This document shows positions 1 through 16,754 of a stretch of 64,000 nucleotides of DNA, in pieces. The stretch is from Candidatus Latescibacterota bacterium (GTDB taxonomy: Bacteria > Latescibacterota > UBA2968 > UBA8231). How positions within the stretch are numbered: position 1 is the stretch's first letter; the number at the start of each line of letters is the position of its first letter. The stretch is taken from positions 736,001-800,000 of the forward strand of contig CBDCXV010000011.1 of the NCBI GenBank assembly GCA_965223905.1. The letters are read 5' to 3'. The position numbers and the translations under genes were made by a program. Under the pieces are notes generated by a model. It saw nothing but the letters and a program-made list of their open reading frames with translations. It searched no databases and was not told where the DNA came from.

Positions 1-192
1 CCCGTCGCTTCTGTAGTCGGTGATGTAGAACCCCGAACCCTTGAAAAGAAGTCCGCCCCCGCCCCCGATCAGGCGCTTGACCTTGCCCCGACAGCTCTTC
101 TGTCGGCATTCGGTCAGAGGGTCGGCCGTGATGCTTTGAAACTCTTCAAAGGTCCTGCCGCATTTCTGACATTCGTACTCGTATGTCGGCAT
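1..192 (-). CDS. FmdB-family zinc-ribbon protein (3' end outside the window)
   Basis: Manual translation from ATG at 192: MPTYEYECQKCGRTFEEFQSITADPLTECRQKSCRGKVKRLIGGGGGLLFKGSGFYITDY. Has the typical MPxYEYxCxxC...FKGSGFYxTDY signature. Not in the ORF track. Confidence 0.9.
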   Translation of the reverse strand, partial: MPTYEYECQKCGRTFEEFQSITADPLTECRQKSCRGKVKRLIGGGGGLLFKGSGFYITDYRSDG

Positions 193-2536: not shown

Positions 2537-2605
2537 TCGTTGTCGCCCGCGGCGGGCTCCGGTATATTCGGTGCTCGCCGACCAGTCAATTGCGGGGGGT
2601 TTGTC

Positions 2606-4135
2606 ATGAATGTGCGAATGGAAAAGCCAGGGATGGACCCGGAAAAACTACGGGAGTTTCTGTCGCAGCAATACGAGAAAACAGCTGAGCCCTCTCCTCA
2701 TTCGGAACCCGCCGGCAGCGGGGATGGCGAACTGTCTTCTCCACCCGGCGAAAAACTGAACTTCAGCCTCAAGCCGGAGGAACTTATAGCCTATCTCGAT
2801 GAATACGTCGTCAGGCAGGAGAAAGCCAAGGCGATCCTCGCCACCAAGATCTGCACCCACTTCAACCGTCTCAATCTCCCGATCGATGACGAAGAGGTTC
2901 TCGTGGGATCGATAAAGAACAACGTGCTGATGATTGGCCCGACCGGTGTCGGCAAGACCTTCCTTGTCAAGCTGATCGCCCGCCGGCTGGGAGTACCGTT
3001 CGTAAAGGCGGATGCCACGAAGTTTTCCGAAACAGGGTACGTAGGAGGCGACGTCGAAGACCTGGTGCGAGAGCTGGTATCCGAAGCCGACGGCGACATC
3101 GAGCTCGCCGAGCACGGGATCATCTACATCGACGAAATCGACAAGATTGCCTCGACGAGAACGACGGCAGGCCCCGATGTCTCCGGCTCAGGGGTACAGC
3201 GCAACCTTCTGAAGCTGATGGAGGAAACAGAGGTCGATCTGAAAGCCCCGCACGACATCTCGTCGCAGATGGAATCGGTGATTCAGATCCAGAGAACCGG
3301 TAGGGCGGAGCGCAAGAAAATAAATACCCGGAACATCCTTTTCGTCGTCAGTGGGGCTTTCGGTGAACTCCAGGAGATCATCGCGCGACGCCTGAATCGC
3401 GGAGCCATGGGCTTTCGACTCCGTGACACGCGCGCCCCGGCGGAGGACGCCGTGGCCGACGGCGAACTGTTTAACGAGGTCCGGGCAGAAGACCTGATCG
3501 ATTTTGGATTCGAATCGGAGTTCATCGGACGCCTTCCCGTCGTTGCCGTGCTCCATAGCCTGGACTGCAATGACCTTCTCGAAATCCTCAGGGGGGAGAA
3601 CAGCAGCGTCATACTGTCGAAAAGGCGGGATTTCAAAGCCTACGGAATCGATCTCGATTTCACCGACGAGGCCTTTCAGAAACTGGCGGAAATGGCTTTC
3701 GAAGAGCAGATCGGGGCACGCGGGCTGGTCAGCGTGGTCGAGAAAGTCCTGCTTCGCTTCGAAACCCGGCTGCCTTCTACGGACCTCGAGTCATTCACCG
3801 TGACCGAACGCACCGTCTTCGATCCCGAGGGTGAATTGAAATCCATGCTTGTAGATACCAGCCTGCAAAGCTTTTCTGCGAAGTTCTCGTGCGACTACGG
3901 TATTCGCCTGAGTTTTTCCGGGGAGGCCGTCGAAGCGGTAAAGAAAATCGCCAGAGAACAGGGCCGGTTGCCTGGCGAGGTTTGCGCCGAGCTCCTTTCG
4001 GACTACGGCCACGGCCTGCAGCTGCTGGAATTGAAGCAATTCGAAATCACCCCGAAGGTGCTCTCCCGGCCGCAGGAGGTTCTGAACCAGCTTATCAAGG
4101 ACCTGTACAGTCCGGCTGCAACCGGGGATCCCTGA
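2606..4135 (+). CDS. ClpX-like AAA+ ATPase lacking the N-terminal Zn finger
   Basis: GPTGVGKT Walker A, DATKFSETGYVGGDVE, IIYIDEIDK Walker B, PEFIGRLP-like ESEFIGRLP, and GARGL. No CxxC N-domain. Start set at ATG 2606. Confidence 0.85.
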   Translation: MNVRMEKPGMDPEKLREFLSQQYEKTAEPSPHSEPAGSGDGELSSPPGEKLNFSLKPEELIAYLDEYVVRQEKAKAILATKICTHFNRLNLPIDDEEVLVGSIKNNVLMIGPTGVGKTFLVKLIARRLGVPFVKADATKFSETGYVGGDVEDLVRELVSEADGDIELAEHGIIYIDEIDKIASTRTTAGPDVSGSGVQRNLLKLMEETEVDLKAPHDISSQMESVIQIQRTGRAERKKINTRNILFVVSGAFGELQEIIARRLNRGAMGFRLRDTRAPAEDAVADGELFNEVRAEDLIDFGFESEFIGRLPVVAVLHSLDCNDLLEILRGENSSVILSKRRDFKAYGIDLDFTDEAFQKLAEMAFEEQIGARGLVSVVEKVLLRFETRLPSTDLESFTVTERTVFDPEGELKSMLVDTSLQSFSAKFSCDYGIRLSFSGEAVEAVKKIAREQGRLPGEVCAELLSDYGHGLQLLELKQFEITPKVLSRPQEVLNQLIKDLYSPAATGDP

Positions 4136-4158
4136 AACGGAGATGGTCGGTCTTCCGG

Positions 4159-5646
4159 CTACGACCGCTTCCGGGTGAGAAGCCGGGCGGACTTGCCGGC
4201 AGGCGGCCCCGGGCCCTCGCTCCCGGTTCGGTGGCGTGATTTACCACGGCCCTTCAGTCCGTATTCTTTCTCTTTTCTGTACAGCGTGCTGAGGCCGATC
4301 CCGAGCACCGCGGCGGCTTGGCGCCGGTCGTAGCCGACTGCTTCCAGGGTGTCGGCAATCGCCTGCTTTTCGATCTCCTTCATCGTCATCCCGGCCTTTA
4401 CGAAAACAGCCGGCCTTCCCCCGGGGTTCCTTATGTGGTCGGGAACGTCCTCAATGTCGAGCCTGCGGTCGGAGGTTCGCATGACGAGCATCCCCTCTAT
4501 GCAGTTCTTCAGCTCCCTTACGTTGCCGGGCCAGTCGTATTGCCCCAGACAGTCGACTGCCGCCGGAGTCATGCCGACCGCCCTTTGCCGGTTCTCCTCG
4601 GCGAATTCGCGAATGAACTCGTCGATCAGGATGGGGATGTCCTCGCGGCTTTGCCGAATTGGCGGAACCTCGATGCTGATCACGTTCAGCCGGTAGAACA
4701 GATCTGCCCGATACTCCCCATCGGAGACCATCGTTTCCAGGTCGCGATTGGTGGCGGCCACCAGGCGGACATCGACTTTGCGCGTCTCCACGCCACCTAC
4801 CCGTTCGAATTCCGAATCCTGTACGACGCGGAGCAGCTTGACCTGCGTCGGCATCGTCAAGTCCCCGACTTCGTCGAGAAAGAGGGTGCCTCCGTCGGCA
4901 AGCTCGAAGCGACCCTTGCGGGAGGCCGAGGCGCCGGTGAACGCCCCCTTCTCGTGGCCGAACAACTCGCTCTCGACGATCGCTTCGGGAAGGGCGCCGC
5001 AATTGGTCTCGACGAAGGGGCGATCGCGGCGATTGCTGTGCTGGTGGATGGCTTTAGCCAGTTCGCCCTTGCCGGTTCCTGTTTCTCCCAGCAGAAGGAC
5101 CGTGGCTTTCGAGGGAGCGACCTGCTCGATCTGGCTGTATATCCGCTGCCACATAGAGGAGCGGCGCACCACCCCCCCGAAGCGGTAGCGCCTGTCGAGA
5201 CGGCGATGGAGATCGTAGACCTCGTCGACGAGGCGCTGGTGCGAGAGACCCCTTCTCAGGACGGCGTTGATCTTGGCGAGAATGAGCGGGCGGACCTGGA
5301 AATCGTACGCCCCTTGCCGCATCGCCTCGGTGCCGAGTTCGATCCCCTCGGGGGTCGTGTTGGCGACCGCTATCGAACAGATCTCGGCATTGCGCTGCAG
5401 GGAGAGTTGAACGAGCCGTAACCCATCTACCCGCTCGGCCTGGAGATCGCAGATCAGTCCATCGACGCCCTCCGTATCGAGGATGTCGTAAGCCGACTGA
5501 CTCTCGCGGGCCCACAGCACCTCGTACCCTTCCTCCTTCAGAAAGGCGACCAAGTGCCTGGTCTCGTCGGTTTCCCCCAGGACGACGAGGACGCGCGCCT
5601 GCACGGCAGAACCGAGCGCATGCGGAATGGTGTGATCTGTTGCCAT
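4159..5646 (-). CDS. Sigma-54-dependent transcriptional regulator (NtrC/AtoC type: receiver, AAA, Fis HTH)
   Basis: GETGTGKG, ESELFGHEKGAFTGA, LFLDEVG, WPGNVREL and a C-terminal HTH (LGIGLSTLYRK). Start uncertain. Confidence 0.92.
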   Translation of the reverse strand: MATDHTIPHALGSAVQARVLVVLGETDETRHLVAFLKEEGYEVLWARESQSAYDILDTEGVDGLICDLQAERVDGLRLVQLSLQRNAEICSIAVANTTPEGIELGTEAMRQGAYDFQVRPLILAKINAVLRRGLSHQRLVDEVYDLHRRLDRRYRFGGVVRRSSMWQRIYSQIEQVAPSKATVLLLGETGTGKGELAKAIHQHSNRRDRPFVETNCGALPEAIVESELFGHEKGAFTGASASRKGRFELADGGTLFLDEVGDLTMPTQVKLLRVVQDSEFERVGGVETRKVDVRLVAATNRDLETMVSDGEYRADLFYRLNVISIEVPPIRQSREDIPILIDEFIREFAEENRQRAVGMTPAAVDCLGQYDWPGNVRELKNCIEGMLVMRTSDRRLDIEDVPDHIRNPGGRPAVFVKAGMTMKEIEKQAIADTLEAVGYDRRQAAAVLGIGLSTLYRKEKEYGLKGRGKSRHRTGSEGPGPPAGKSARLLTRKRS

Positions 5647-5762
5647 CTCAAGGGGACGAGGTATCGAAGTTTCCTCGCACCTTTCCGAATGTCTTATTCC
5701 GTCGCCTCGAACGCCATCACCTGTCAGCTGAGCAACGTCGTCTGGCAGCCCGGTTCCCGGGC

Positions 5763-6596
5763 TCATGCCGGCGTCAGGTGAGCGATCGTTTCGCAATGGG
5801 GTGTCTGGGGAAAGAGGTCGATCGGCTGAAGGGACGGTACTCGAAACCCGCCTTCGCAGAGAACCCTCGCGTCAGCGGCCAGGGACGTTGGGTTGCAGGA
5901 GACGTAACCGAGGGACGGGGGTCTCATTCCGATCAGGGCCCGCAGCACCGACTTGTAGATTCCCGCGCGTGGGGGGTCCGCGATCACGAGATCGAATCTC
6001 CTGTTTTCCGCCATCAGGACGGCGATCACCTTCTCAACACGGCCCGCCCTGAAGGTGCAGTTTCCCCCCGTTCCGTTCTTTTCGGCGTTTCTGCGGGCGT
6101 CGGCAACCGCCTCCTCGACCTGCTCGATTCAAATCACCCTGTCGGCCCGTTTTGCCAGGTGAAGGCTGATGCCTCCTGTCCCGCAGTAGAGGTCGAGGAC
6201 AGTGGCGCCGGTCAGATCACCCGCCAGCGCCAACGATCTGCTCGTACAGAACCGCTGCCTGACCGGTGTTGGTCTGGAAGAAGGCCGCTGAAATCTCGAA
6301 CCCGATCCCTCCGCAGACTTCCGAGATCCTGCCGCTTCCCTTGAGAACGAACTCCCGTTCTCCGATGGCGGCCTGGGCCTTTCCCCGGTGCAGGGTCACG
6401 ACAAAAGTCGTTATCTCCGGAACCCTTTCCAGGACACAGCGAACCAGGTCTCCGACTCCCTTGTCCGGGTACTCTGAGACAACCAGGTTCACCATCACCT
6501 CGCCGGGATTCCTGCCTTCCCGGACCACGCACGGTATCGAGAAGATCCGGTTCGACAGCTGCGACTGGAGACGGCAGTCGAGCACGTCGAAAATCC
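5763..6596 (-). pseudogene. rlmD: 23S rRNA m5U methyltransferase RlmD/RumA, C-terminal part (interrupted and frameshifted)
   Basis: FFQTN, DPPRAG, YVSCNP and DLFPQTPHCE motifs are spread over several frames. Continues from 14545-15006 across the insertion. Confidence 0.9.
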
Positions 6597-6630
6597 GGTA
6601 GTACGTCAGTTTGAAATCGAGTTATCCACA
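6597..6630 (+). repeat. Left terminal inverted repeat containing a DnaA box (TTATCCACA, 6622-6630)
   Basis: GGTAGTACGTCAGTTTGAAATCGAGTTATCCACA. Confidence 0.93.
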
Positions 6631-6671
6631 CCCCAGGAAGTGTAGTATTTACAGTAACATACCTTCCTTAA

Positions 6672-6754
6672 GGGGGCGCGGAGTCCTTGGGAGGATGGAT
6701 TGGTCTTGACTCCGTCCATCCTGTGTGCCAAGGGTCAAGATACTCCGCGCCCCC
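6672..6754 (+). ncRNA. Candidate pseudoknotted RNA, unit 1
   Basis: P1 6672-6684/6742-6754 (13 bp), P2 6685-6690/6728-6733, P3 6692-6699/6715-6722, loop 6703-6710 complementary to 6734-6741. The G-U pairs favour the plus strand. Confidence 0.6.
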
Positions 6755-6771
6755 AGCATTTCGGGGGACAA

Positions 6772-6848
6772 GGGAGCAGGGCCGGTTGTGTGGGAGCGAG
6801 CAGTCCGATGCAGCTCGCTCCGATAAACCATCGGATTGGCCCTGCCCC
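6772..6848 (+). ncRNA. Candidate pseudoknotted RNA, unit 2 (same topology as unit 1)
   Basis: P1 6776-6783/6838-6845, P2 6784-6787/6826-6829, P3 6793-6801/6813-6821, loop 6802-6809 complementary to 6830-6837. Confidence 0.6.
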
Positions 6849-6893
6849 CCACTTGACATTGCCAGCTTGCGCCTCCAACCACAGGAGGCAGAT

Positions 6894-7160
6894 ATGGAAA
6901 GCGGAAAGCTCAAACCAGGATGGCAGGAGGGCATCAAGAAGCTGATCGCAGAAGCAGACCGGCAGGAGGAACTAACTCCGGGTGACGGGGAGGATTTGAG
7001 AGGTGCCCCCCCCGCCTCCACGGGATTCGAGAGCGGCGATCCGGGAAACAGCGGATTCAAGGTCATTTCGGAGAGAACGGAGCGTCTTTTCAAACAACTG
7101 GAGCTGGGCTTCGAGCGCATCAATGCTCTCCGCAAGGCCAGGGGGCTCCCACCCGTCTAA
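6894..7160 (+). CDS. Hypothetical protein, 88 aa
   Basis: AGGAGG at 6883-6888 before the ATG and TTGACA at 6853-6858. Overlaps a convergent ORF. Confidence 0.5.
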   Translation: MESGKLKPGWQEGIKKLIAEADRQEELTPGDGEDLRGAPPASTGFESGDPGNSGFKVISERTERLFKQLELGFERINALRKARGLPPV

Positions 7161-7271
7161 GCGCATCAGTTTCTCCAGCTTTTGGGTTGCCTCTTCCACC
7201 TTAAGTGAGTTAGTGACAGGGGTGTTCAGATACTTTTGAAGCCTCTGTATTTCCTTGTCGAACTGCGCCAT
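6972..7271 (-). CDS. Hypothetical coiled-coil protein, 99 aa
   Basis: GGAG upstream of ATG 7271, strong heptad pattern, co-oriented with the transposase. Confidence 0.6.
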   Translation of the reverse strand: MAQFDKEIQRLQKYLNTPVTNSLKVEEATQKLEKLMRLDGWEPPGLAESIDALEAQLQLFEKTLRSLRNDLESAVSRIAALESRGGGGGTSQILPVTRS

Positions 7272-7290
7272 CGTGATTTTCTCCAAAGGG

Positions 7291-7587
7291 TTAGGCGGTG
7301 GCGATTTGCGGCCCCTGGCTGTTACGAGCAGCCGGGGCCGTGTCTATGTTCAGCATTTTTTTCAATTTCATATCTGTCTGTTTGTAATCTTGCACGGCAG
7401 ATCCATCTGCAATTGAGCCCGGCAGAGCTATTGGTATAGGGCTCCACTTGCCGCCACTGGTCCGATAGTCCCACATGGTTCCATCATCGCAAATCACGAT
7501 GTAGGAGCCATCAAAATGTCCACGCACCATTGCTACAGGCTTTCTGGGTTCCGGAACTGGGACTTCTTGTTGACTATCGTCACACAC
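7291..7587 (-). CDS. Hypothetical protein overlapping the transposase stop
   Basis: ORF track; the start overlaps the transposase 3' end, suggesting translational coupling. Confidence 0.5.
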   Translation of the reverse strand: MCDDSQQEVPVPEPRKPVAMVRGHFDGSYIVICDDGTMWDYRTSGGKWSPIPIALPGSIADGSAVQDYKQTDMKLKKMLNIDTAPAARNSQGPQIATA

Positions 7588-8470
7588 TTTCCTTCTCCAT
7601 TTTCCGGTAGGTTTTGGGACGATCTGGCTTGGGAGCCCTGTAGTCGATCAGGTCCAAGATCCAGCCTATGTCGTAGGGCCATTCGAAGATACCGGCTTTC
7701 ATGGCCGGGGTTTTTCCGTCCAAGCTCATGTGAGGGCGGATGAAGTTGTAGTACAGGAAGTAGAGGCTGCACATGTGAACGTGGTTCTGGAACTTCTTGC
7801 TGAATCCGTTGGTGCTTCGAGTGAACCGCCTCATTCCCATTCGCATGGTGAGGTTCTGACGTTCGACATGTGAGGTAGTGATGTGCTTGGGATCAGGATC
7901 ACCCTTTATCACCGATTTTTCGCTAGTGACTTCGATGGGGAGGGTAAATTTCCCATCTGGAGTATTCGTCGGATACTTGAAAGATTTCACAAGCTGGCTG
8001 TAGTCTACGAAGTTGCCGAAAGCCTTATCTACGGACTCTTGATAGGACCCCAAACCGTCAGTGGTCAGTTGCACTCGATAGGCAAGTCGACTCTGGAGGT
8101 CCTTCATGAACTTCTCGCCGGTTTCAATGGTGCGATCCCCGATCTGGTAAGAGACGATCAACTTACTTTTGGGATCTATGGCAGTCCAGGTCCAGATGTC
8201 CCCGGCAAAGGGAGGGGGATTCTTGGCCGTTTCGACGTTCTTCTTCTTGGCGTAGCAGAAAGCCCATATCTCATCGCACTGAATGCGCTTCGCCCTGACC
8301 ATGCGGACATTCCGGTCATGGAACTCGGCAGCGGCTTCTCCAGCGTCAACGAGCAGCTTCTTGACGGTGTTGAAGGAGCATCGGACAAGGCGGGCAGTGG
8401 CCTGCATCGAGTTGCCTTCTACTAGAAGATTCAGGACTTGCTCACGGTCTGACCTTGGGAGGGTTTTCAT
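7580..8470 (-). CDS. IS1-family DDE transposase (single ORF, N-terminal HTH)
   Basis: LVEGNSMQATARL HTH; IQCDEIW, WTWTAID, QLTTDG and TSHVERQNLTMRMGMRRFTR motifs typical of IS1-type transposases. Intact. Confidence 0.9.
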   Translation of the reverse strand: MKTLPRSDREQVLNLLVEGNSMQATARLVRCSFNTVKKLLVDAGEAAAEFHDRNVRMVRAKRIQCDEIWAFCYAKKKNVETAKNPPPFAGDIWTWTAIDPKSKLIVSYQIGDRTIETGEKFMKDLQSRLAYRVQLTTDGLGSYQESVDKAFGNFVDYSQLVKSFKYPTNTPDGKFTLPIEVTSEKSVIKGDPDPKHITTSHVERQNLTMRMGMRRFTRSTNGFSKKFQNHVHMCSLYFLYYNFIRPHMSLDGKTPAMKAGIFEWPYDIGWILDLIDYRAPKPDRPKTYRKMEKESV

Positions 8471-8510
8471 GCTTGCACAGTTCCTTCTTTGGGAGGGATT
8501 TCATACAAAT

Positions 8511-8539
8511 ATAGTACGAAAAAAACCGTGCAAAATCAA
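8511..8539 (-). promoter_or_regulatory. Sigma-70 promoter for the transposase
   Basis: TTGATT-N17-TACTAT on the minus strand, 40 bp upstream of the ATG. Confidence 0.6.
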
Positions 8540-8569
8540 CGTAATCCAGTTAAAAAACAACTATTTATG

Positions 8570-8605
8570 GCTTCAATGAGGCCGGGGTCCGAAGACCCCG
8601 GAAAG
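8570..8605 (-). CRISPR. Solitary CRISPR repeat unit, type I-G (I-U)-like; not an array
   Basis: Minus strand CTTTCCGGGGTCTTCGGACCCCGGCCTCATTGAAGC: 36 nt, 8-bp GC stem, 3' ATTGAAGC handle. No second copy seen. TATAAT at 8625-8630 upstream. Confidence 0.7.
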
Positions 8606-8758
8606 GCAATGGCAAGGAAAGGATATTATATACAATCTTACCCACGGAGACTGGTAAAGCCTACCGCTTCCGTCCTGATTCCTCCAGGTAGCATGTCATC
8701 TCCCTTCGCGAGCCCGATCCCTCACTCGCCTTCATCTAGGATCAGACCAAGCATTTGT

Positions 8759-8995
8759 CTACTCGCATCGAGCTTTGCAGGTATCGGCAGCTTTACCGGA
8801 CCGGGCAATACAGGCTCTCTTGTCACTGTCCCAAAACCGGGAAAAGCATACCGGTATACTGTCCTCGTAATCCTGCTGGCAATAACTGATACACCGCGCC
8901 TTAGCCTCTTCTGCGGAACAGGAGCTGGCAGGATTGGAACGGCTGCATCCATAGACCAACACAGCGGCCGCGATCAACAGCAGTGCGGGTGTCAT
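8759..8995 (-). CDS. Small cysteine-rich lipoprotein
   Basis: Signal peptide with lipobox VYGC followed by seven more Cys; AAGGAGG SD. Confidence 0.7.
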   Translation of the reverse strand: MTPALLLIAAAVLVYGCSRSNPASSCSAEEAKARCISYCQQDYEDSIPVCFSRFWDSDKRACIARSGKAADTCKARCE

Positions 8996-9037
8996 GCGAC
9001 CTCCTTGGTCAGCTGTCGGAAGCGTCTACGGCGGGGG

Positions 9038-9370
9038 TCAGTCACCGTACAAAATCGAAGGGTGGCCCCACTTTAGATCCCATCCTTTCGCGCCGACGAT
9101 ATAGCGGTGGAAAGAAACGCCCGGATCGGTTTTCGTAGCTGCTTGTAGATCATCAGCTTGGTTCTGCTCGTTGGGTGAATCCATAGTATCGACTTCAACG
9201 ATCCATATTTTGCCGTCCTTGTAGGCGACTATATCGGGAATTCTACCGTTGATAGATTTCGGAGTTGGATGCGTATCTATGTGGTCAGCTTCAACATCAC
9301 AACCTGCTTGCTCAAAAACCTCGACGATTTTGTCCACAGCCAAGTTGTGGACTGTCTGTTCCCATGCCAT
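9038..9370 (-). CDS. Small PD-(D/E)xK nuclease-fold protein
   Basis: RIPDIVAY...IWIVEVDT pattern; AAGGAG SD before ATG 9370. Confidence 0.6.
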   Translation of the reverse strand: MAWEQTVHNLAVDKIVEVFEQAGCDVEADHIDTHPTPKSINGRIPDIVAYKDGKIWIVEVDTMDSPNEQNQADDLQAATKTDPGVSFHRYIVGAKGWDLKWGHPSILYGD

Positions 9371-9487
9371 TCTGAAATCTCCTTTTCGGTCTGCATCAGA
9401 GTAAGGCACACCTGATGCCAGCTCATCGCAAGGCCGTAACTCCCTGTTTCCAGGGAGACCAAGCATTGTATCAGCAGCTTTCTATTG

Positions 9488-9679
9488 TCACTGTTCCATT
9501 TCTATGCGACTACTGTAAGGACTCCCCCACAGGCATACCGAGAGTAGAACCCAGATATACCAGTGACCGCTTGTGTGCTTCGGAGGATATTGCCGGCTGT
9601 AGGTGCGGTAGAGGTTCCACCACCCAACCGCTAAGGGGATCGTCAAGGCCAAGAGAAATGCACCTACATCCTTTCCCAT
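9488..9679 (-). CDS. Small two-TM membrane protein
   Basis: Two hydrophobic segments; lies directly downstream of 9699-9923. Confidence 0.5.
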   Translation of the reverse strand: MGKDVGAFLLALTIPLAVGWWNLYRTYSRQYPPKHTSGHWYIWVLLSVCLWGSPYSSRIEMEQ

Positions 9680-9698
9680 TTAACTACCGTTGGTTTTG

Positions 9699-9923
9699 TT
9701 ATGATTTTCCGTTTTGTTCATCATTGCGGTCGAGTTCTGATCCTACTTTGTTTCCCGCCAGTAACCCCAGTGCTCCCACTATCGCCCCTAGGGGAATCGT
9801 CGCCGGCGCAGCCCAGCCACCTGTAGCGATACCTATACCAGCCCCGATCTTGGCTCCAATAGCAGCGCCAGCGGCTGCTCCGCCTGCTGTTCCAACCAAT
9901 TCCTTTTTCCTTTTCTTCTTCAT
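9699..9923 (-). CDS. Glycine-zipper small membrane protein
   Basis: GxxxG repeats (GTAGGAAAGAAIGAKIGAGIG), basic N-terminus, AAGGAG SD. Confidence 0.7.
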   Translation of the reverse strand: MKKKRKKELVGTAGGAAAGAAIGAKIGAGIGIATGGWAAPATIPLGAIVGALGLLAGNKVGSELDRNDEQNGKS

Positions 9924-9950
9924 GTCCTGTCTCCTTTTTCTGTCTCTGCC

Positions 9951-10025
9951 AAAAAAAAGACCGCGCCGGGGTCTAACCTATCGCACCGAACTCCCCCGAA
10001 GCGGTTGGCGGCGAATCTCGCCGCA
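9951..10025 (-). terminator. Two hairpins followed by a U-tract
   Basis: GCGGCGA/TCGCCGC hairpin, then an ACCGC...GCGGT stem followed by a T-run on the minus strand, downstream of 10038-10217. Confidence 0.45.
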
Positions 10026-10037
10026 CGAAAAATTCCG

Positions 10038-10217
10038 TTACTTCTTTTTCCGACCCGAGCCGGATTTGCGGCCAGACTTCGGCTGATCCTCTTTAGCAGA
10101 GGTCCCGGTCACCGGGACCCTTACGTCTTCCTCTTCCCCGGTGGCGATGCGGCACACCTGCACCGCCAGTGCAATGGGGCTGGACGGTCGAACTTCGCCG
10201 TTAGGTCCTATGGGCAT
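10038..10217 (-). CDS. Small basic protein of the MPxGPxGExRP...RIATGE type, often found next to this IS1 subgroup
   Basis: MPIGPNGEVRPSSPIALAVQVCRIATGEEED plus a Lys/Arg tail. Family link is from recall, not a search. Confidence 0.65.
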   Translation of the reverse strand: MPIGPNGEVRPSSPIALAVQVCRIATGEEEDVRVPVTGTSAKEDQPKSGRKSGSGRKKK

Positions 10218-10303
10218 GATGCCATCCTTTCCGTTAAGGTGTAACGAACGATGCGGCATCGGATTGGGAATGTCAAGCTAATACTTCGATAATCATAGAG
10301 GGA

Positions 10304-10588
10304 TCACGGCGGAAAATCCGCGAGGGCTGCCCGGCGATTGGATAGGCTTTCTTCTCGGACGTCCTCAGCCCTCAGCGGTGCGTTCATGCGTTCCCGCAAG
10401 GCGGCTCCCAAGGCGGAAAGGGTGCGTTCCCGGTCGCCTTTGCGCAGAAGAGCGTGCAAAACCTCTTCGTTTGGCTTCGGGGATCGCAGTTCATCGGAAA
10501 TGGCCTTCGGCAGGGCTTCCTTCGCTCGGCCTTGTTGCCTTTGGGGTTCCATCCAGTTTGACGGTTTTGGCACGGGGTGTTCAGTCAT
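10304..10588 (-). CDS. Hypothetical protein
   Basis: ATGA overlap with the upstream ORF; AGGAG SD. Confidence 0.55.
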   Translation of the reverse strand: MTEHPVPKPSNWMEPQRQQGRAKEALPKAISDELRSPKPNEEVLHALLRKGDRERTLSALGAALRERMNAPLRAEDVREESLSNRRAALADFPP

Positions 10589-10839
10589 TTCTCCTGGTCA
10601 AAGGCAGTGTGGTATCTTTTTGTCAGCAGAACCACGTCCTTGAATGTGGGGAATATGAACCGTTTCGCCCGGCTATCTCCAGTAGCTGTCCAGCGGTTGA
10701 TTTCGAACCTGTTGCTCTCCCGGGATTTCAGGTGGTCGCCGTCCGGGTCCTGTGCGTGCGCTTGGAGTTGCAGGCCGACTTGGATGAGGTCGTGAGCCAT
10801 TTCGAGTAGTTCAGCCCGTAGGTCTTCCGCGTCAGACAT
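10585..10839 (-). CDS. Hypothetical protein
   Basis: ORF track; operon-like spacing. Confidence 0.55.
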   Translation of the reverse strand: MSDAEDLRAELLEMAHDLIQVGLQLQAHAQDPDGDHLKSRESNRFEINRWTATGDSRAKRFIFPTFKDVVLLTKRYHTAFDQEK

Positions 10840-10897
10840 TGGATTCTGTTCCCCTGTTCAGGTTTATTGGCCGTGCCGGGGGTCTGAGACAATACCG

Positions 10898-11149
10898 TTA
10901 CTTCGGATGGTTCTCCAAATGCTCGACGTGGTATTGCCGTAACTCCGTCAACTGGCCTTTGATTTCCGTAAGAGTTTGATCCGTGTTATTCTGACTGGCC
11001 TTGATCCGCTTGCCAATGGCCTTATGGGCTTTGTTGTTAGTTTTGTTGGTCGTCTTCAGCTCGCTTTTCAGGTTGTTGCGCAGTGCTGCATACAGGGCCA
11101 CAACAGCCAAGACAATGGTCCCAACGGCAATCCAGATTTCGGAAGTCAT
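10898..11149 (-). CDS. Small protein with N-terminal TM helix and coiled coil
   Basis: IWIAVGTIVLAVVALYAAL followed by a heptad pattern. Confidence 0.65.
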   Translation of the reverse strand: MTSEIWIAVGTIVLAVVALYAALRNNLKSELKTTNKTNNKAHKAIGKRIKASQNNTDQTLTEIKGQLTELRQYHVEHLENHPK

Positions 11150-11184
11150 GGGAGGGTCCTTCGTTGGGTTGGTTCAAAATTTCT

Positions 11185-11532
11185 TCACGTACCGGAGGTT
11201 CGGTCCCTGATTCGGTTCTTTGTCCTTCTATTGGCCCAAATGGACAATCCTGACAGCCCGCCACAGGCCAAGCCGAATAATCCCAAAAGAATCGCGCCCC
11301 CCCTAGATCCATGAGGAGTTACAAGAAGCGTCACCGAGGCGCCAAATGAAGCCGTGGCAATACCGATGCAGAACGTTCCCATCCACCCTATGGTTTCGAG
11401 ACCTTCGACCTCTTCTTCGGTCAGGGAATACATTCTAAGCGTTCTCGTTTCTTGGATGACATTGACGTTGTTAGCGGAGGATGGTGAAATCTCACCTCCG
11501 CCGCCCTTTTCAGACACTGAGTTCTTGCTCAT
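11185..11532 (-). CDS. Two-TM membrane protein
   Basis: Two C-terminal hydrophobic helices and a basic tail. Confidence 0.6.
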   Translation of the reverse strand: MSKNSVSEKGGGGEISPSSANNVNVIQETRTLRMYSLTEEEVEGLETIGWMGTFCIGIATASFGASVTLLVTPHGSRGGAILLGLFGLACGGLSGLSIWANRRTKNRIRDRTSGT

Positions 11533-11824
11533 GCTTTGAGTCGGAAATGGGTTTTCCCAGATTTTTAATCCCCATCACGACGGCACTGAAAATCCTGGTA
11601 AATCCACACTTCCCGCAATGGAGCAAGATGGCGGGGAAGCACACCCTTCCATGGGGGGACTGTGTTGTCCCGAGCGACGTAAGGCTCATTAAATGTGTAT
11701 TAATGAACCACCTGTTACTACGACATTGGGAACAATTGGGACTTATCCCATTGTCTTCCATCCATTCGTGTATTCTATCTATATCTTCTTCCGTTAGCTT
11801 ACCATCAGCCTCGGGCATTCTCAA
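11510..11824 (-). CDS. Zn-ribbon protein
   Basis: CSQC...CGKCG; AAGGAGG SD. Confidence 0.65.
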   Translation of the reverse strand: MRMPEADGKLTEEDIDRIHEWMEDNGISPNCSQCRSNRWFINTHLMSLTSLGTTQSPHGRVCFPAILLHCGKCGFTRIFSAVVMGIKNLGKPISDSKHEQELSV

Positions 11825-11879
11825 GCCTCCTTAGATGACCTTACGATGATCTTACAATGATCTCATTTCGCCGTTCTCC

Positions 11880-12017
11880 TCACTCCACTCCTGTTCTGCC
11901 ATCCAGGTGGCGGTCGAGGCGGTCGTTGTGACGGTCGATTCGGCTTCCAATGTCTCGCCAAAAGGCACCCAGAGCTGCCAGTACCACGAGCATGGGAATG
12001 ATTTCCGTCCAAGTCAC
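11880..12017 (-). CDS. 45-aa TM plus coiled-coil peptide
   Basis: Manual translation MTWTEIIPMLVVLAALGAFWRDIGSRIDRHNDRLDRHLDGRTGVE; GTG start after AAGGAGG. Not in the ORF track. Confidence 0.6.
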   Translation of the reverse strand: MTWTEIIPMLVVLAALGAFWRDIGSRIDRHNDRLDRHLDGRTGVE

Positions 12018-12039
12018 CTTGGGCCTCCTTCAGGAGGGA

Positions 12040-12309
12040 TCAGCTGCCGTTGACGGGTCCGGGAGTGGGGCATGGATCGAGCCGGCCTTCCACTCTATAC
12101 AACCCCTTTTCCACATAGTCAAGGCGCACATCGATGCGGGCCAGAGCCTTGCCCTGAGCAGACAGTTCCTACTGCATGGCGTTCATCCGGGTGTCCATCA
12201 GGTCCATTCTGGAACTCAGGCTGGAGCTGAATCCCCACTGGCTGCCGATGATGGCAACCAGAAGTCCCAAGAGCACCAGAACGTCCTTCCAGTTCAGTCT
12301 GCCGTTCAT
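12040..12309 (-). pseudogene. TM plus coiled-coil protein with an in-frame TAG at codon 47
   Basis: MNGRLNWKDVLVLLGLLVAIIGSQW...RMNAMQ*ELSAQGKALARIDVRLDYVEKGLYRVEGRL. The heptad pattern continues past the stop at 12169-12171. Confidence 0.55.
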
Positions 12310-12429
12310 CTTGGGCCTCCTTCAGGATAGGTGGTCTCCCACCGCTACCCTGAATTTCTCGCCATGAATAGGGAATGTCAAGCCAAAAACCGCTTGTGGA
12401 CGCCCGTGGGGTACTGTAAGGTATGAGCC

Positions 12430-12663
12430 GTCCGCTTCTCTACACGCAGGATCCGACTGAGGTCGGGTCTCCTGCTGAATGCAATAGCCAGTAGTAGAAC
12501 CCGGCCAAGGGGTCGCACCCCGAGGCAAGGCGAATAGGCAGGACTTTCCCGCGCGTTCCTGCGTGTCAGGGAGGTGGACAAGGCCCGGCACCCTTTTTTT
12601 CGGGGTGTCGTGGTGGCCGAAAAGTCCACCTCGAAACGCGGGAAATCGGTCGTGCAACACCCC
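12430..12663 (+). ncRNA. Candidate structured, switchable RNA (C4/CI antisense-like architecture)
   Basis: 22-bp stem 12430-12451/12557-12579 with 3 G-U pairs and one bulge, internal hairpins, and competing complements at 12624-12632 and 12637-12645. Putative promoter TTGTGG-N17-TAAGGT at 12394-12422. Confidence 0.55.
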
Positions 12664-12777
12664 TCCCAGAAGCATCTCAGTAGCTACAGATCCACCTGTT
12701 CGTCACTGTCTCAAGGGACGGTCCCGGTGTGCCATACCTGGACGGCTGTCCACCGGAAGGGGTTTGTCCACTCCTTC

Positions 12778-13335
12778 TTGCGGGAATGCCGTAGGCCGGG
12801 ACCGCTCTGCTTTTTTCTGTCGTGTCTGGTGCTGATCGGTTGCGCCAGAGACAGCAGCACCACTCCTGAATCTGCCCCCCCTGCGGAGTCAGTCTCCAGA
12901 CCAGATCCAGACGATCTGGACCTTTGGAGCTACGGTTACAACAGCAGCCAAAGGGTGCACATCTTGAGACACACCGCCACCTCAGAAGGGGTGGACTGCA
13001 CGATGTGGATTGAATGCAGGGGGACTCCCAGCTTCCCGGACTTGTATTTCTGGATTCCCAGAGGAGACTTCAATGGTTGGGGAGGCACACCTGGATACGA
13101 TGGGGATTGGCCAGATCAACCGGTCATAAACCTGACATGGGGAGAAGAAAATCCAGAACCTACCAAGATGAATTTGAGCAAGAACACCTTCACTTTTCAG
13201 GACCGGAAATGGAAGGACAAGATGATGTCGAACGACATCCTGTTGATGGAATTGCCGTGGGAACAATACGGCTCACTGTATTTCTATTTCGATCTCAGAG
13301 AAGGAAGACAACTCCTCAGCTACCACTGCTTATGA
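12778..13335 (+). CDS. Putative lipoprotein
   Basis: Basic then hydrophobic signal ending in lipobox LIGC, a Pro/Ser linker and a globular domain. Start uncertain (the ORF is open from 12574). Confidence 0.6.
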   Translation: MRECRRPGPLCFFLSCLVLIGCARDSSTTPESAPPAESVSRPDPDDLDLWSYGYNSSQRVHILRHTATSEGVDCTMWIECRGTPSFPDLYFWIPRGDFNGWGGTPGYDGDWPDQPVINLTWGEENPEPTKMNLSKNTFTFQDRKWKDKMMSNDILLMELPWEQYGSLYFYFDLREGRQLLSYHCL

Positions 13336-13368
13336 ACCACATCCATACCCCTCCCAAGGAGCAACTCG

Positions 13369-13524
13369 ATGACGCTTGCCAGTGAGCTGGTGAAGAAGCT
13401 GGAAGAAGAGCTGTCAGAGACTCAGAAAAAGCTCAAAGCAGAAGAGCAGAAGTCAGACAAATGGAAGAAGAAGGCAGGCGATAGATGGCAAGAGATTGAA
13501 CGTATGAAACGCAACTCGGGTTGA
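13369..13524 (+). CDS. 51-aa charged coiled-coil protein
   Basis: Manual translation MTLASELVKKLEEELSETQKKLKAEEQKSDKWKKKAGDRWQEIERMKRNSG; AAGGAG SD. Confidence 0.6.
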   Translation: MTLASELVKKLEEELSETQKKLKAEEQKSDKWKKKAGDRWQEIERMKRNSG

Positions 13525-13525
13525 C

Positions 13526-13783
13526 TCAATCTATCAGCAGACCGCAGCATTGAATTACAAAACCGAGGACCAAAACAGATACTCCGACCTTTGCTCTTCG
13601 AGAATCCTTGAGCAGTTGCTGGACCATTGGGAGCTTCATGTGGTCTTCCCTTGTCTCTCCTACCCATCGTGAAACTCCAAGCTCGATGGCCTTATCCCTG
13701 GACATGATAATGCCTGAACCCAAAATCACAGCTCCAACAATGTCCATCAGGAGACCAGCTACCTGAATTGATTCAGTAGACAT
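13526..13783 (-). CDS. Two-TM membrane protein
   Basis: Hydrophobic N- and C-terminal helices. Confidence 0.6.
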   Translation of the reverse strand: MSTESIQVAGLLMDIVGAVILGSGIIMSRDKAIELGVSRWVGETREDHMKLPMVQQLLKDSRRAKVGVSVLVLGFVIQCCGLLID

Positions 13784-13784
13784 G

Positions 13785-14289
13785 TCAACCGGTCTTCTGT
13801 TTGGGGTCGAAGTGGATTTCCTGCTTGTCCGTGGAGAGGAAGAGCTGGTCGAGGTACCGCAGTCTGGTGTTCACGGTAGGCGAGGGAGGCACCTGCACCT
13901 TGCCGGCATGAGACAGATCGGTCCGGGAGGTGTGAGCTTCCCGGTCGGTCAGGGCGACGATGTATTTCAGTCGGGCCATAGCAAGTGCTCCGGGAGTAGG
14001 ATGTAGACCGGTTCCTGATTCCAGAAATCGCCTAAGCCTGCAGCCATGTGGGCTTCCATAAGGGTACGAATACCTGTGGCAAGTTCGATATCCAGTGTGG
14101 GGTTGGCCAGAGATTCTCGACGCATATGGGCCATATGGCGCTCATGAGCTGAACGTCCCAAGAGAGGGGGGCAGGTCGACTTTTCGGCGTCGGATGTCTT
14201 CTTTCTTTGCTCGTCGTTTCAAGTCTGAGTAATTCCGTCCAGATTGGTGTTGATTTTTTTTCTCAGAATGGTATTTTTCAAGTGCCATT
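13785..14289 (-). pseudogene. Hypothetical gene(s), probably frameshifted
   Basis: Three short overlapping ORFs (14142-14289, 13967-14161, 13785-13979). The first junction lies next to a G7 run. AAGGAG SD before ATG 14289. Confidence 0.35.
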
Positions 14290-14476
14290 AGGCACTCCTT
14301 TCTTGAGAGGGAAGGAAACGAAAGCAAGGGACTGGAGATAGCCTATGCCAAGGCTTTCGGTCCCTTCTTTCATTTTGGGGTCAAAACGTCATCATGCTGG
14401 GCAATATACGTACTTTGTTCCCAAATCTCCAGGTTCAGCCACGGAATGTCCAGGACGAATCAGATATCCCTAAAAA

Positions 14477-14489
14477 AATCAACCATTTA
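14477..14489 (+). promoter_or_regulatory. IHF consensus site near the right end of the transposon
   Basis: AATCAACCATTTA matches WATCAANNNNTTR and is preceded by an A-tract. Confidence 0.55.
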
Positions 14490-14510
14490 CCTACTGTTTG
14501 TGGATAGAAT

Positions 14511-14544
14511 TGTGGATAACCCAGGTTCAGACTGACGTACTACC
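14511..14544 (-). repeat. Right terminal inverted repeat with a DnaA box (14511-14519); second 8/9 box at 14499-14507
   Basis: Reverse complement GGTAGTACGTCAGTCTGAACCTGGGTTATCCACA. Confidence 0.93.
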
Positions 14545-15006
14545 GAAAATCCGGTTGTAGCGACCGCGGTGGTGCAACCCCAGCAACGTGCCGCCTCCGC
14601 AATCCCTGCCGAAGAACTCCATCTTGTTGCGGTAGAAAAACGGGGCGCGACTCGCAATAATCGGCCTTTGCTCGTCGCAACGGAGACCCTGTTGCTCCAG
14701 TGCATTTTGCAACCATCCGTTCCTTCAATCGCAACTGGTCGCCGTAACGGAGGTCCTACCAGCGGCACCCGCCGCACCCCGAAGTTAGGGCATTCGGAGG
14801 CTACCCGGGGGATCGGGGTGCTCGTTATGCGGTCCGCAGTCGCCTCCCAGATTCTCCCTTTCCTCCTGCGCACGGTTCGCTTCCACACGATCCCCGGGCA
14901 GCGTCCGGCGAACGATGAACTCCGAGTCGTCGATCCTGGCCCAGCCGTCACCCTGGGCCGTTAACTCGCGGATATCTAGCTCAATCCTGTCTCCGCGTCT
15001 TGGCAC
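14545..15006 (-). pseudogene. rlmD: RlmD N-terminal part (TRAM domain, Fe-S region), frameshifted
   Basis: MPRRGDRIELDIRELTAQGDG...LPGDRV, CPNFG, YRNKMEF, spread over several frames. Confidence 0.9.
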
Positions 15007-15053
15007 TGGCCGAAACCGTTACGGTGCTGAATGATGGTGAACCGAGGTACATG

Positions 15054-15107
15054 AAAAAGCGAGGCGCACGAGATGATGCCATTTTCACCATCAAAAGCGC
15101 GCCTCGC
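15054..15107 (-). terminator. Intrinsic terminator after rplQ
   Basis: GCGAGGCGC/GCGCCTCGC stem with a T5 run on the minus strand. Confidence 0.5.
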
Positions 15108-15161
15108 CTTTCGGTTGAGGGAGTGGACGCTCCCGGCCGGGTGGTTCACCCAGGGTCGTCC

Positions 15162-15581
15162 CTATTCTTCTTTCTTTTCCGTTTCCTGACTCGCGGTTGG
15201 ACCTGACGCCGGAGCACGGCTACCTGGCCTGTCGACCAACTCGATTATGCACATCTCGGCACCATCGCCACGCCTCGGCTCACCCTTGACAATCCGTGTG
15301 TACCCGCCGCTGCGGTTGGAGTAGCGCGGACCGATCTCGTCGAAAAGCTTTGCCACTATGCGCTTGTTGGCTATTGTGCGCAGCACCTGGCGACGCGCAT
15401 GCAGATCGCCCCTTTTGGCAAAGGTGATCAGACTCTCGGCGGTTCGCCTCAGTTCCTTCGCTCTCGCCGTTGTTGTATGGATAGCCTCGTGTTCGATCAA
15501 AGAGGTGACCATGTTGCCGAGCATCGCCTTGAGATGACTGCGATCGCGGCTCAGCCTGGCCTTTTTGTTCCTGTGTACCAT
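15162..15581 (-). CDS. rplQ: 50S ribosomal protein L17
   Basis: [24 protein letters not shown]. Confidence 0.98.
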
Positions 15582-15648
15582 TGCTTTTTCGTGGGATCCG
15601 TGGTCACGCCTCGTCCGACCACGACGAACCGGTTCGGGATGAGTTGCG

Positions 15649-16662
15649 TCATTCCTCCGCCAAGGCGCTTTCGGGCTCCTCGTCCAGCTCGACGTCCTCG
15701 AAGCGCGAGATGTCCATGCCCCACGCCAAATTCATTTCGTCGAGGATTTCGCCCAACTCGTTGAGCGACTTGCGCCCGAAGTTGCGAAACTTGAGCATCT
15801 CCGCTTCACTGCGCGAAACGAGTTCGCGAAGATTCGTAATCCCCGCGGCCCGGAGACAGTTTGCCGATCGCACCGACAGTTCGAGGTCGTCAACCGGCAT
15901 GGCGAGCAGCTTGGCAATGTGCTTTACCTGGTCATCGACTTCCCTCTCCGGATCGGGCACCGGTTCAGTCTGGAAATTTGCGATGAGATCCAAATGCTCG
16001 ATCAGAATCCTCGCGGCCTGCGCCATGGCGTCTTCCGGCCGCAGGGAACCGTCCGTCCACACCTGCAGATTGAGCCGGTCAAAGTCGGTGCGACGGCCGA
16101 CGCGAGCGTGCTCGATGTCGTAATTGACCTTTAGAACGGGGGAGAAGTTTGCGTCCATCGGAATGGTTCCGATCGGCTGTTCCGGAAGCTTGTTCTCCTC
16201 GGCGAACACGTAGCCACGCCCCCTGCCGACCGCTACCTCCATCTTCAGGTGTACCTCTTTGCCGAGGGTTGCGATGTGGAGATCCGGATTCAACACCTCG
16301 ACCGCGGAATCGACCGTAAGGTCCCCGGCGACCAACTCCCTCGGCCCCTTGGCCTCGATTTGCAAAACACGGTCCTCTTCTCCGTGGTAGCGGATGGCGA
16401 CCTCCTTGAGATTCAGCACGATCTCCGGCAGGTCTTCGCGAACTCCCTTGACCATGGAGAACTCATGCTGCACGCCCTCGACGCTTACCGACTTGATGGC
16501 GGCCCCCTGAATTGAGGATACGAGGACGCGTCTGATCGCGTGTCCCACGGTCACGCCGAATCCGCGCTCCAACGGCTGCATCGTAAACGAGCCGTAGGTG
16601 TCGGTAAGCGTGTCCTTGTCGACTTCAACGAGACGCGGCATCTGAAGACCATCTAATGCCAT
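15649..16662 (-). CDS. rpoA: RNA polymerase alpha subunit
   Basis: [29 protein letters not shown]. Confidence 0.99.
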
Positions 16663-16754
16663 ATGGCTACTGACCCCCGGTTTGGTTTGGTTGTGAAAAG
16701 ATGGACGCTGTTTCGGCCACGAACTTGGTTCGCCCCGAAATCCGCTTCCGTCAA

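Follow-up and report, generated by a model that had tools for sequence, protein, structure and literature searches.

The stretch of DNA analysed here, called the window below, comprises 64,000 nucleotides of a Candidatus Latescibacterota bacterium and corresponds to C11:736001-800000 in the 7.9-Mb, 11-contig assembly of the host (G000). It carries a transposon of 7,948 bp (positions 6597-14544), in which a single transposase is the only recognisable gene, and within this transposon a lone repeat of the kind found in type I-G arrays of CRISPR (clusters of regularly interspaced short palindromic repeats). Read along the minus strand, a perfect TATAAT (8630-8625) is followed after 19 nt by the 36-nt repeat CTTTCCGGGGTCTTCGGACCCCGGCCTCATTGAAGC (8605-8570), by the 12 nt CATAAATAGTTG and by a run of six T residues (8557-8552), exactly, to the base, where the original prediction had placed them. 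The repeat is intergenic, lying between an open reading frame (ORF) at 8759-8995 on the minus strand and the transposase start at 8470. A plus-strand ORF that overlaps it (8489-9076) has a non-coding-like GC content at the three codon positions (GC1/GC2/GC3 of 0.52/0.56/0.48) and just a 21-bit PHROG match. The features of the locus, together with the CRISPR arrays of the host, are collected in Table 1.

Table 1. Features of the transposon and its repeat, and CRISPR arrays of the host. Positions are those of the window unless a contig is named.
Feature	Position	Strand	Remarks
Target-site duplication GAAAATCC, left copy	6589..6596		same 8 bp outside the other end
Terminal inverted repeat GGTAGTACGTCAGTTTGAA	6597..6615	+	end downstream of the transposase
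Cargo ORF, 104 aa	6972..7286	-	in the 960-bp segment between transposase stop and inverted repeat
IS1-family DDE transposase, 296 aa	7580..8470	-	PF03400 DDE_Tnp_IS1, 38.6 bits (cut-off 24.1)
Putative transposase promoter module	8508..8569	-	AT-rich 8569-8541; -35 TTGATT 8539-8534; -10 TATATT 8513-8508
Solitary type I-G CRISPR repeat	8570..8605	-	stem-loop 8601-8582; 8-nt handle ATTGAAGC 8577-8570
Predicted Csb2 cut	between 8578 and 8577	-	from the geometry of T. sulfidiphilus Csb2 (PMC9638904)
Candidate -10 box, perfect TATAAT	8625..8630	-	19 nt 5' of the repeat; without matching -35
Last cargo ORF before the repeat, 78 aa	8759..8995	-	signal-peptide/lipobox-like N-terminus; AAGGAGG upstream
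Small co-directional orphan ORFs, 64-142 aa	9038..14161	-	coding-like codon-position GC; 9038-9466, 10038-10259, 10304-10588, 10585-10839, 10898-11149, 11510-11824, 13526-13783, 13785-13979
Conserved structured-RNA-like motif, ~130 nt	12462..12605	+	antisense to the transposase
Terminal inverted repeat GGTAGTACGTCAGTCTGAA	14526..14544	-	far end
Target-site duplication GAAAATCC, right copy	14545..14552		
Array, I-E-like	C9		26 repeats
Array, I-E-like	C11:365924		74 repeats
Array, 37-nt repeat	C10:1255137		24 repeats
Array, repeat GTTTCCGCGATCTATTGGTCGCGGCCTCATTGAAGC	C11:1244676		19 repeats
Array without cas genes	C10:90933-92854		14 identical repeats

The 19-bp inverted ends of the transposon match at 18 of 19 positions. 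In two genomes of the same genus (G001 and G002) the sequences corresponding to 2500-6603 and 14544-17000 of the window are contiguous, the intervening piece being absent and the empty site containing one copy of the duplicated target, GAAAACCC. Taken together, the inverted ends, the duplicated target and the empty sites of both congeners assign the repeat to a recently inserted mobile element, and its placement inside a transposon, claimed at the outset, holds. The insertion splits a gene for a (uracil-5) RNA methyltransferase that is intact (452 aa) in G002. The remains of this gene lie at 14553-14951 and 5763-6596 on the minus strand, with the 3' part in at least two frames (6212-6631 and 5763-6029). 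An 11-nt inverted repeat (7387-7397 and 8526-8536), a first guess at the ends of the element, was discarded in favour of the true ends at 6597 and 14544.

Judged by its sequence, the solitary repeat is genuinely of type I-G and of the host's own kind, because it is kin to array repeats of the same genome, has the flanks of a repeat linked to Cas4g/Cas1g, and matches the geometry of the published Csb2 substrate. A k-mer scan and inspection of the host genome yielded the five arrays of Table 1. The solitary repeat is identical at 34 of 36 positions to all 14 repeats of the array at C10:90933-92854, near which no cas gene was found among 34 ORFs scanned. The array at C11:1244676 directly follows Cas4g/Cas1g (738.8 bits, cut-off 560), and its locus also encodes Cas3g, an I-G "Cas3-extension" protein and an ISL3 transposase. 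The solitary repeat and the repeats of these two arrays have in common a 5' TTTCC and a 3' GGCCTCATTGAAGC; their alignment has 26 invariant columns out of 36, and compensatory changes maintain the 8-bp stem across the three types. A third array, at C10:1255137, adjoins genes for Cas2, a Cas1 fusion, Cas3g, a full-length Csb2 (192.8 bits) and Csb1/Cas7g. The cognate I-G genes of the host, a search for which was part of the original prediction, thus comprise Cas3g (twice), Cas4g/Cas1g, Csb2 and Csb1/Cas7g, and the predicted likeness to type I-G is borne out both by the array with the same flanks, which stands beside Cas4g/Cas1g and Cas3g, and by the geometry of the repeat.

This geometry may be compared with that described by Shangguan et al. 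(2022, Nucleic Acids Research, PMC9638904), in which the I-G repeat is 36 nt long, Csb2 cuts 4 nt past a hairpin of 7-8 bp to leave an 8-nt 5' handle, Csb2 remains on the cleaved hairpin, and the protospacer adjacent motif (PAM) is TTN. In the solitary repeat the stem-loop occupies positions 5-24, followed by CCUC at 25-28 and AUUGAAGC at 29-36. Its RNA is predicted to form an 8-bp stem capped by a UUCG loop (-17.0 kcal/mol), a stability reached by 3 of 200 shuffled sequences. The likeness extends to the company of the related host repeats, which lie beside Cas4g/Cas1g, Cas3g, Csb2 and Csb1; the difference is that the repeat in the transposon stands alone, without spacers, and that its cleavage by Csb2 is a prediction. 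The two differences from the type of the 14-repeat array both fall in the hairpin, where the loop CUCG has become UUCG and a G.U pair has become G-C. These changes take the fold from -15.6 to -17.0 kcal/mol and leave the flanks and handle unchanged. Of 108 possible single substitutions, we count about 22 that would leave both the structure and the flanks intact, so that two such changes would be expected by chance with a probability of about 0.04. The Rfam model CRISPR-DR16 (RF01330) aligns to the repeat end to end (model positions 1-37, minus strand) at 30.2 bits (E=5.8e-4), below its gathering score of 35, and the match supports likeness to a CRISPR repeat, not membership in that family.

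Several further observations concern the host arrays themselves. The array at C10:90933-92854 is rearranged, its last two repeats being separated by a 970-nt insert. Inside this insert lie a truncated repeat in inverted orientation (C10:91511-91537) and one copy of a ~120-nt dispersed repeat, which is also found on both sides of the array and on C9; TraI/primase-like and TraR-like ORFs lie 5-17 kb away. In the C11 locus (C11:1228001-1246200) csb1, csb2 and Cas8g went unrecognised by NCBIfam, PADLOC and BLASTP, and TIGR04113 (Csx17, Cas8g) had no match in the host, nor in any control genome. The same locus includes a Phd-like antitoxin ORF and three large ORFs (367, 590 and 786 aa) without a family match, and C11:2036306-2036841 holds a piece of csb1 with 91% identity to the copy on C10. 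Spacer 12 of the I-E-like array on C11 (C11:366623), 33 nt long, aligns to C9:431004-431032 over 29 bases, 28 of them identical, possibly a self-target or a prophage target.

The repeat is truly solitary. Allowing up to 3 mismatches, the window contains the 36-mer a single time, against 0.00 occurrences expected from 100 shuffles. The three repeat types (solitary, C10:90933-92854 and C11:1244676) served to build a covariance model, R1, which scores the solitary repeat at 57.8 bits. Run with its filters off over the whole transposon, R1 found no second or degenerate repeat; the highest other score, 14.6 bits, is the same hairpin read on the opposite strand, and the next real candidate reaches at most 8.1 bits. 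Genome-wide, R1 recovered the two arrays, the solitary repeat, the truncated inverted copy in the C10 insert and a weak 20.7-bit match on C9 (E 0.46). Genome-wide matches to Cas1, Csb2 and Csb1 all lie outside the window. The assertions that no second repeat accompanies this one and that the window lacks cas genes therefore stand, the latter for the three families searched.

The repeat ends exactly at the start of what appears to be the promoter module of the transposase, which spans 8569-8504 if a short upstream ATG at 8504 is included. In four of seven homologous elements (L047, L048, L050 and L055) an AT-rich stretch, a TTGAC or TTGAT -35 and a TATATT-like -10 likewise precede the ATG by a few bases. 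Of the transposase promoter that the original prediction had placed downstream of the repeat, the TTGA -35 and TATATT -10 common to homologous elements have thus been recovered, while a scan for consensus promoters made no call. The start region of the transposase (8470-8520, minus strand) contains a pair of similar starts, ATGAAATCCCTCCCAA and ATGAAAACCCTCCCAA, separated by 34 nt; the first of them lies 3 nt after the TATATT box and opens a frame of 20 codons. In relatives the -10 is followed 6-8 nt later by just one ATG, a spacing that suggests leaderless transposase mRNAs. We considered whether the hairpin and the T6 run form an intrinsic terminator and rejected this: a scan of 8300-9100 found no terminator-like site, and the U6 run begins 24 nt 3' of the stem, where an intrinsic terminator needs it within 0-2 nt. 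We take the T6 run instead to belong to the AT-rich sequence 5' of the transposase -35, which the related elements share.

We tentatively favour, with rather less than even confidence, the reading that the repeat acts as a solitary repeat unit (SRU) whose transcript ties up Csb2 and Cas7, in the manner of an RNA anti-CRISPR (Racr). Transcripts of the repeat would originate at the TATAAT 19 nt upstream, or enter by read-through from cargo genes that point the same way, or both; co-transcription with the cargo is likely, as the scan showed nothing terminator-like between the repeat and the ORFs upstream of it. The host Csb2, a Cas5-Cas6 fusion, would bind the 8-bp UUCG hairpin, cut 4 nt past the stem and stay on the hairpin. 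The downstream piece would start with the handle and, having no second repeat, would seed only dead-end Cas7 assemblies. In this way the RNA would titrate Csb2 and Cas7 from real CRISPR RNAs (crRNAs), to the benefit of the transposon or of the plasmid or phage carrying it. All of these steps are predictions; like the decoy, the cutting of read-through transcripts by Csb2 that the original prediction suggested is plausible.

The features by which SRUs are recognised at the sequence level are present: the repeat matches an array repeat, is intergenic, has no partial repeat nearby, resides on a mobile genetic element and belongs to the same subtype as a system of the host. As to a predicted promoter within 250 bp upstream, the perfect TATAAT lies at 19 nt, without a -35 and without a call from the scan. 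Its distance from the repeat resembles that in two I-G leaders of the host, in which -10-like boxes stand 21-23 nt before the first repeat. Camara-Wilpert et al. (2023, Nature, PMC10651486) described 2,103 viral and 90 plasmid SRUs, 83% of which match the host subtype, and RacrIF1, which acts via Cas6f and Cas7f. Our candidate resembles these in being a lone intergenic repeat, unlinked to cas genes, on a mobile element and of the host's subtype, with an intact hairpin and handle and a possible promoter just upstream. It differs in its carrier, a chromosomal cargo transposon of the IS1 family of insertion sequences (IS) where theirs are phages and plasmids, in having no recognised acr neighbour, and in being a candidate known from sequence only.

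Several observations weigh against a decoy function. That the repeat is transcribed at all is deduced from its surroundings; the TATAAT has no usable -35, and the promoter scan called nothing there on the minus strand. Family scans recognised no acr- or aca-like neighbour among the cargo ORFs. None of the 151 spacers of the five host arrays matches the transposon, so that there is no evident present need to protect it. The I-G locus on C11, whose repeats have the most similar flanks, contains an ISL3 transposase, and csb1 and csb2 were not recognised in it. Moreover, this is a single instance of a transposon-borne repeat. No I-G-like repeat was found at the 91 related transposase loci from genomes (11 from the bacterial family and 80 from genome contigs, with 1.5-kb flanks; best other E=0.84) or at 80 related loci from metagenomes (best E=0.42). 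With none at 171 related loci, the repeat is not a conserved part of the IS family. The exact repeat type is absent from the 75 other genomes of the family, and its exact pattern (with two N) has no match in metagenome or viral contigs. A search of the 91 loci for handle-type repeats by motif plus hairpin returned 23 matches, none of them at the place 5' of the transposase and none convincing, and was set aside. Finally, solitary I-G repeats that look like deletion scars occur in relatives and show that relics do arise in this family.

This last point leads to an explanation nearly as likely as the decoy, namely that the repeat is inert passenger DNA, left when an I-G array, of the host or of a mobile element, collapsed by recombination between repeats or when the insertion sequence captured the edge of an array. 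I-G-like repeats are present in 28 of 76 genomes of the family, the host included, and five relatives with a single R1 match were inspected (G051, G066, G060, G010 and G077; loci L141, L144, L145, L142 and L143, respectively). In G051 and G066 a repeat, a 39-nt spacer and a degenerate repeat lie right before an ATG, next to a PIN-domain gene, and in G060 a lone repeat lies beside a Gp49/helix-turn-helix (HTH) pair. In all three the lone repeat or mini-array comes right after a glyoxalase gene, which in G061 is found 15 kb 5' of an array of 13 repeats. The solitary units of these three genomes are therefore likely to be deletion scars. The lone repeat of G010, CTTTCCGGGG...CCCCGGCCTCATTGAAGC, is preceded by TTGACA and followed by a strong terminator hairpin, and transposase fragments lie nearby; it stands upstream of an rve-type ORF. 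A conserved link between repeat and transposase, considered on the strength of this locus, was dismissed since that ORF lacks homology to the IS1-like transposase (BLASTP E=0.012 over 33 residues). Weaker single matches were seen in G062, G068, G070 and G074.

A relic would also account for the uniqueness of the repeat among the 171 related loci and for its weak promoter, and the scrambled state of the near-identical array at C10:90933-92854 indicates that recombination around such repeats occurs. The flanks of the solitary repeat have no homology to the leader of either I-G array (z <= 1.1), and leader and trailer comparisons with the three I-G-type arrays gave nothing significant (z -0.9 to 2.0). 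However, the repeat is of full length with exact ends, both of its substitutions make the hairpin more stable, and its handle is intact, whereas the scar-like repeats of relatives are visibly degenerate, being shortened to 34 nt in G066 and altered in the handle in G077 and G066. The cargo is of lower GC and foreign in appearance, yet the repeat type is found in the host genome alone. A relic would, in addition, still be transcribed with the cargo and be a substrate for Csb2, so that the absence of any effect would require low expression.

The setting of the repeat between cargo and transposase suggests a different function, as a punctuation mark or insulator in RNA. Here the hairpin, with or without cleavage by Csb2, would end or cut read-through from the cargo; it would thereby stabilise the 3' end of the upstream mRNA as repetitive extragenic palindromic (REP) elements do, and would uncouple the transposase from outside transcription. 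We consider this improbable. The repeat does stand exactly at the junction of the co-directional cargo ORFs with the promoter module, Csb2 stays on the cleaved hairpin (PMC9638904), and two of seven homologous elements, the window's own excluded, have a tRNA or tRNA-like fold at the same place. The element in G002 carries a 92-nt tRNA with anticodon TAT (RF00005, 64.8 bits; L052 2955-3046) just 5' of the transposase, and a second element in the host (C10:298724-302268; L049 282-349) carries a tRNA-like fold that matches mascRNA-menRNA at 28.8 bits, below gathering. But the repeat is not an intrinsic terminator, as noted above, nothing similar stands there in the other five relatives, and an I-G repeat is found at none of the 171 related loci. 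Any GC-rich hairpin would serve this purpose, and the intact 8-nt handle would be left unexplained. A tRNA gene lies within the 1.5-kb flanks of 10 of the 80 loci from genome contigs.

A bolder variant would combine insulation with the decoy as a CRISPR switch of the insertion sequence. Csb2 would cut read-through and SRU transcripts, and Cas7 would coat the handle-bearing 5' end of the transposase message. Transposase would then be kept low while the I-G system is active and would be freed when CRISPR is lost or inhibited, and the same RNA would drain Csb2 and Cas7. We think this very unlikely; if true, it would be the first element of the IS type to couple transposition to CRISPR status through a single repeat.

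The remaining functions start from the likeness of the repeat to parts of an array. CreA of the CreTA system is a crRNA-like regulatory RNA, and crRNA-like RNAs (crlRNAs) are found near cas operons and in phages. A guide of this sort, an idea already contained in the original prediction, would direct I-G Cascade to a promoter, either the transposase's own or that of a host defence gene, or to an insertion target. The sequence after the handle does overlap the -35 region of the transposase promoter, crRNA-like regulators are documented (10.1101/2023.03.03.530964, 10.1101/2024.12.27.630466, 10.1101/2024.10.29.618823), and a repeat-derived RNA from outside a normal array could load Cas proteins as theirs do. 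Those regulators, however, combine a second (degenerate) repeat with a short spacer that partly matches a PAM-flanked promoter, neither of which is seen here. The transposon has no second or degenerate repeat. Besides its own locus, the first 16 nt of the would-be spacer have one genomic match at up to 2 mismatches (21 of 36 overall), the PAM position at the own locus reads AGC instead of TTN, and comparison by eye showed no match to the flanks of the insertion site. The transposase is of the IS1-type DDE kind, and the scan of cargo ORFs turned up no targeting gene like those of Tn7. As far as the sequence goes, the guide reading largely fails, and of the functions considered it is the one to which we give the least credence. 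Only slightly more credible is an array seed, in which a leader and a single repeat could be expanded by Cas4g/Cas1g-Cas2 into a transposon-borne array. Such a seed is suggested by the single repeat with a -10-like box at a leader-like distance, by the Cas4g/Cas1g of the host and by the presence in the genome of a cas-less array of the same repeat type. Yet the repeat has no spacer and no similarity to either I-G leader, and nothing points to past integration at it.

The carrier itself is an element of the IS1 family. The transposase is present in a single copy in the host genome, its homologues in relatives are 45-61% identical, and plasmid records label such homologues "IS1 family transposase". 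Related inverted repeats (GGTAGTG..TCAGTTTGAA) flank the homologous transposases of relatives, and inverted repeats of this type were matched in 57 of 76 family genomes at up to 3 mismatches; a reversed-pattern control likewise gave 0-2 matches per genome. Homologous elements with paired ends measure 1.7-4 kb, and short pairs resembling miniature inverted-repeat transposable elements (MITEs) also occur. The transposase stop abuts one inverted repeat in four of seven homologues (L047, L048, L050 and L053), with variable cargo filling the space to the other. Inverted ends starting with GGT and a target duplication of 8-9 bp are typical of the IS1 family, and the closest group is presumably that of IS1-family elements with passenger genes, the ISMhu11-like subgroup of ISfinder. 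Our element resembles these in its DDE_Tnp_IS1 domain with an N-terminal HTH, its GGT ends, its 8-bp duplication and its variable cargo between one end and the transposase. It differs in its size, 7.9 kb being the largest among eleven elements (the others 1.7-4 kb), in its internal transposase, 960 bp from the end, and in a cargo that includes a CRISPR repeat. Searched against plasmids, the whole transposon matched through its transposase alone, in 5 records at 1-4% coverage, and against phages it had no match. To the right of the transposon, a suspected prophage at 15-43 kb was discarded: the genes there encode ribosomal proteins, RpoA, RpoBC and elongation factors, and 15162-43000 is the core block of rplQ-rpoA, ribosomal-protein, EF-Tu/EF-G and rpoBC genes.

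The cargo has a GC content of 0.51-0.59, compared with 0.60-0.67 in the left flank, and its ORFs yielded no useful Pfam, PHROG, PADLOC or NCBIfam family above threshold. The 104-aa ORF is coding-like (GC1/GC2/GC3 of 0.61/0.40/0.65) and has DNA relatives of 78-80% identity in G013 and G023, with no family above the cut-off; the 78-aa ORF next to the repeat has no family match either. The 142-aa ORF at 9038-9466 has one homologue, 92% identical, on a 12-kb ENA contig. In the Atlas the cargo pointed only faintly to AHJR-like nucleases (0.94; 160 features in common, under the 170 usual for true family matches), and two cargo proteins compared with viral contigs gave nothing, or one match of 29 residues.

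In addition to proteins, the cargo contains a motif of ~130 nt with the pattern GTCGGGTC.CCTGCTGAATA..A.AGCC ... GGCGAATAGGCAGG ... GGCCCGGCAC, which may be an undescribed structured RNA. Copies were found in L055 (~3792-3912) and elsewhere in the host (C10:73959-74021 and C11:1190994-1191114), in the cargo of an IS1-like element of G001, where it has the same relative orientation, and in 11 other genomes of the family, each with one or two. RNAalifold, applied to seven copies, predicted 29 pairs, 8 of them with compensatory changes, and the G-U pairs favour the plus strand. The motif had no Rfam match at E<=1.

Tn7-like CRISPR-associated transposons (CASTs) encode their own Cascade or Cas12k together with TniQ/TnsABC and use a guide that matches a homing site. 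The present element resembles them in being a transposon with a lone CRISPR repeat element, and differs in that no Cascade or Cas12k of its own, no TniQ/TnsABC and no homing-site guide were recognised. The novelty lies in the carrier, a cargo transposon of the IS1 type, and in the I-G subtype; the kind of candidate, an SRU or Racr, is already known. Neither "I-G" nor "I-U" occurs in the main text of Camara-Wilpert et al. (PMC10651486), as distinct from its supplementary SRU lists, and we found no report of an SRU on an insertion sequence or transposon in the open-access literature, although supplementary I-G entries may exist.

If the decoy reading is correct, the RNA anti-CRISPR strategy would extend from phages and plasmids to a third and very common class of mobile element, and to type I-G, for which no RNA inhibitor has been reported in the open-access literature searched. 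One 36-nt element and one Csb2 would make a compact object for testing it. If the repeat is instead inert, it provides a clean, dated case of single repeats scattered by mobile DNA, a source of false "orphan CRISPR" calls. As a whole, the IS1-like elements of this bacterial family ferry RNA-type cargo near the transposase, including a CRISPR repeat, a tRNA, a tRNA-like fold and the 130-nt motif.

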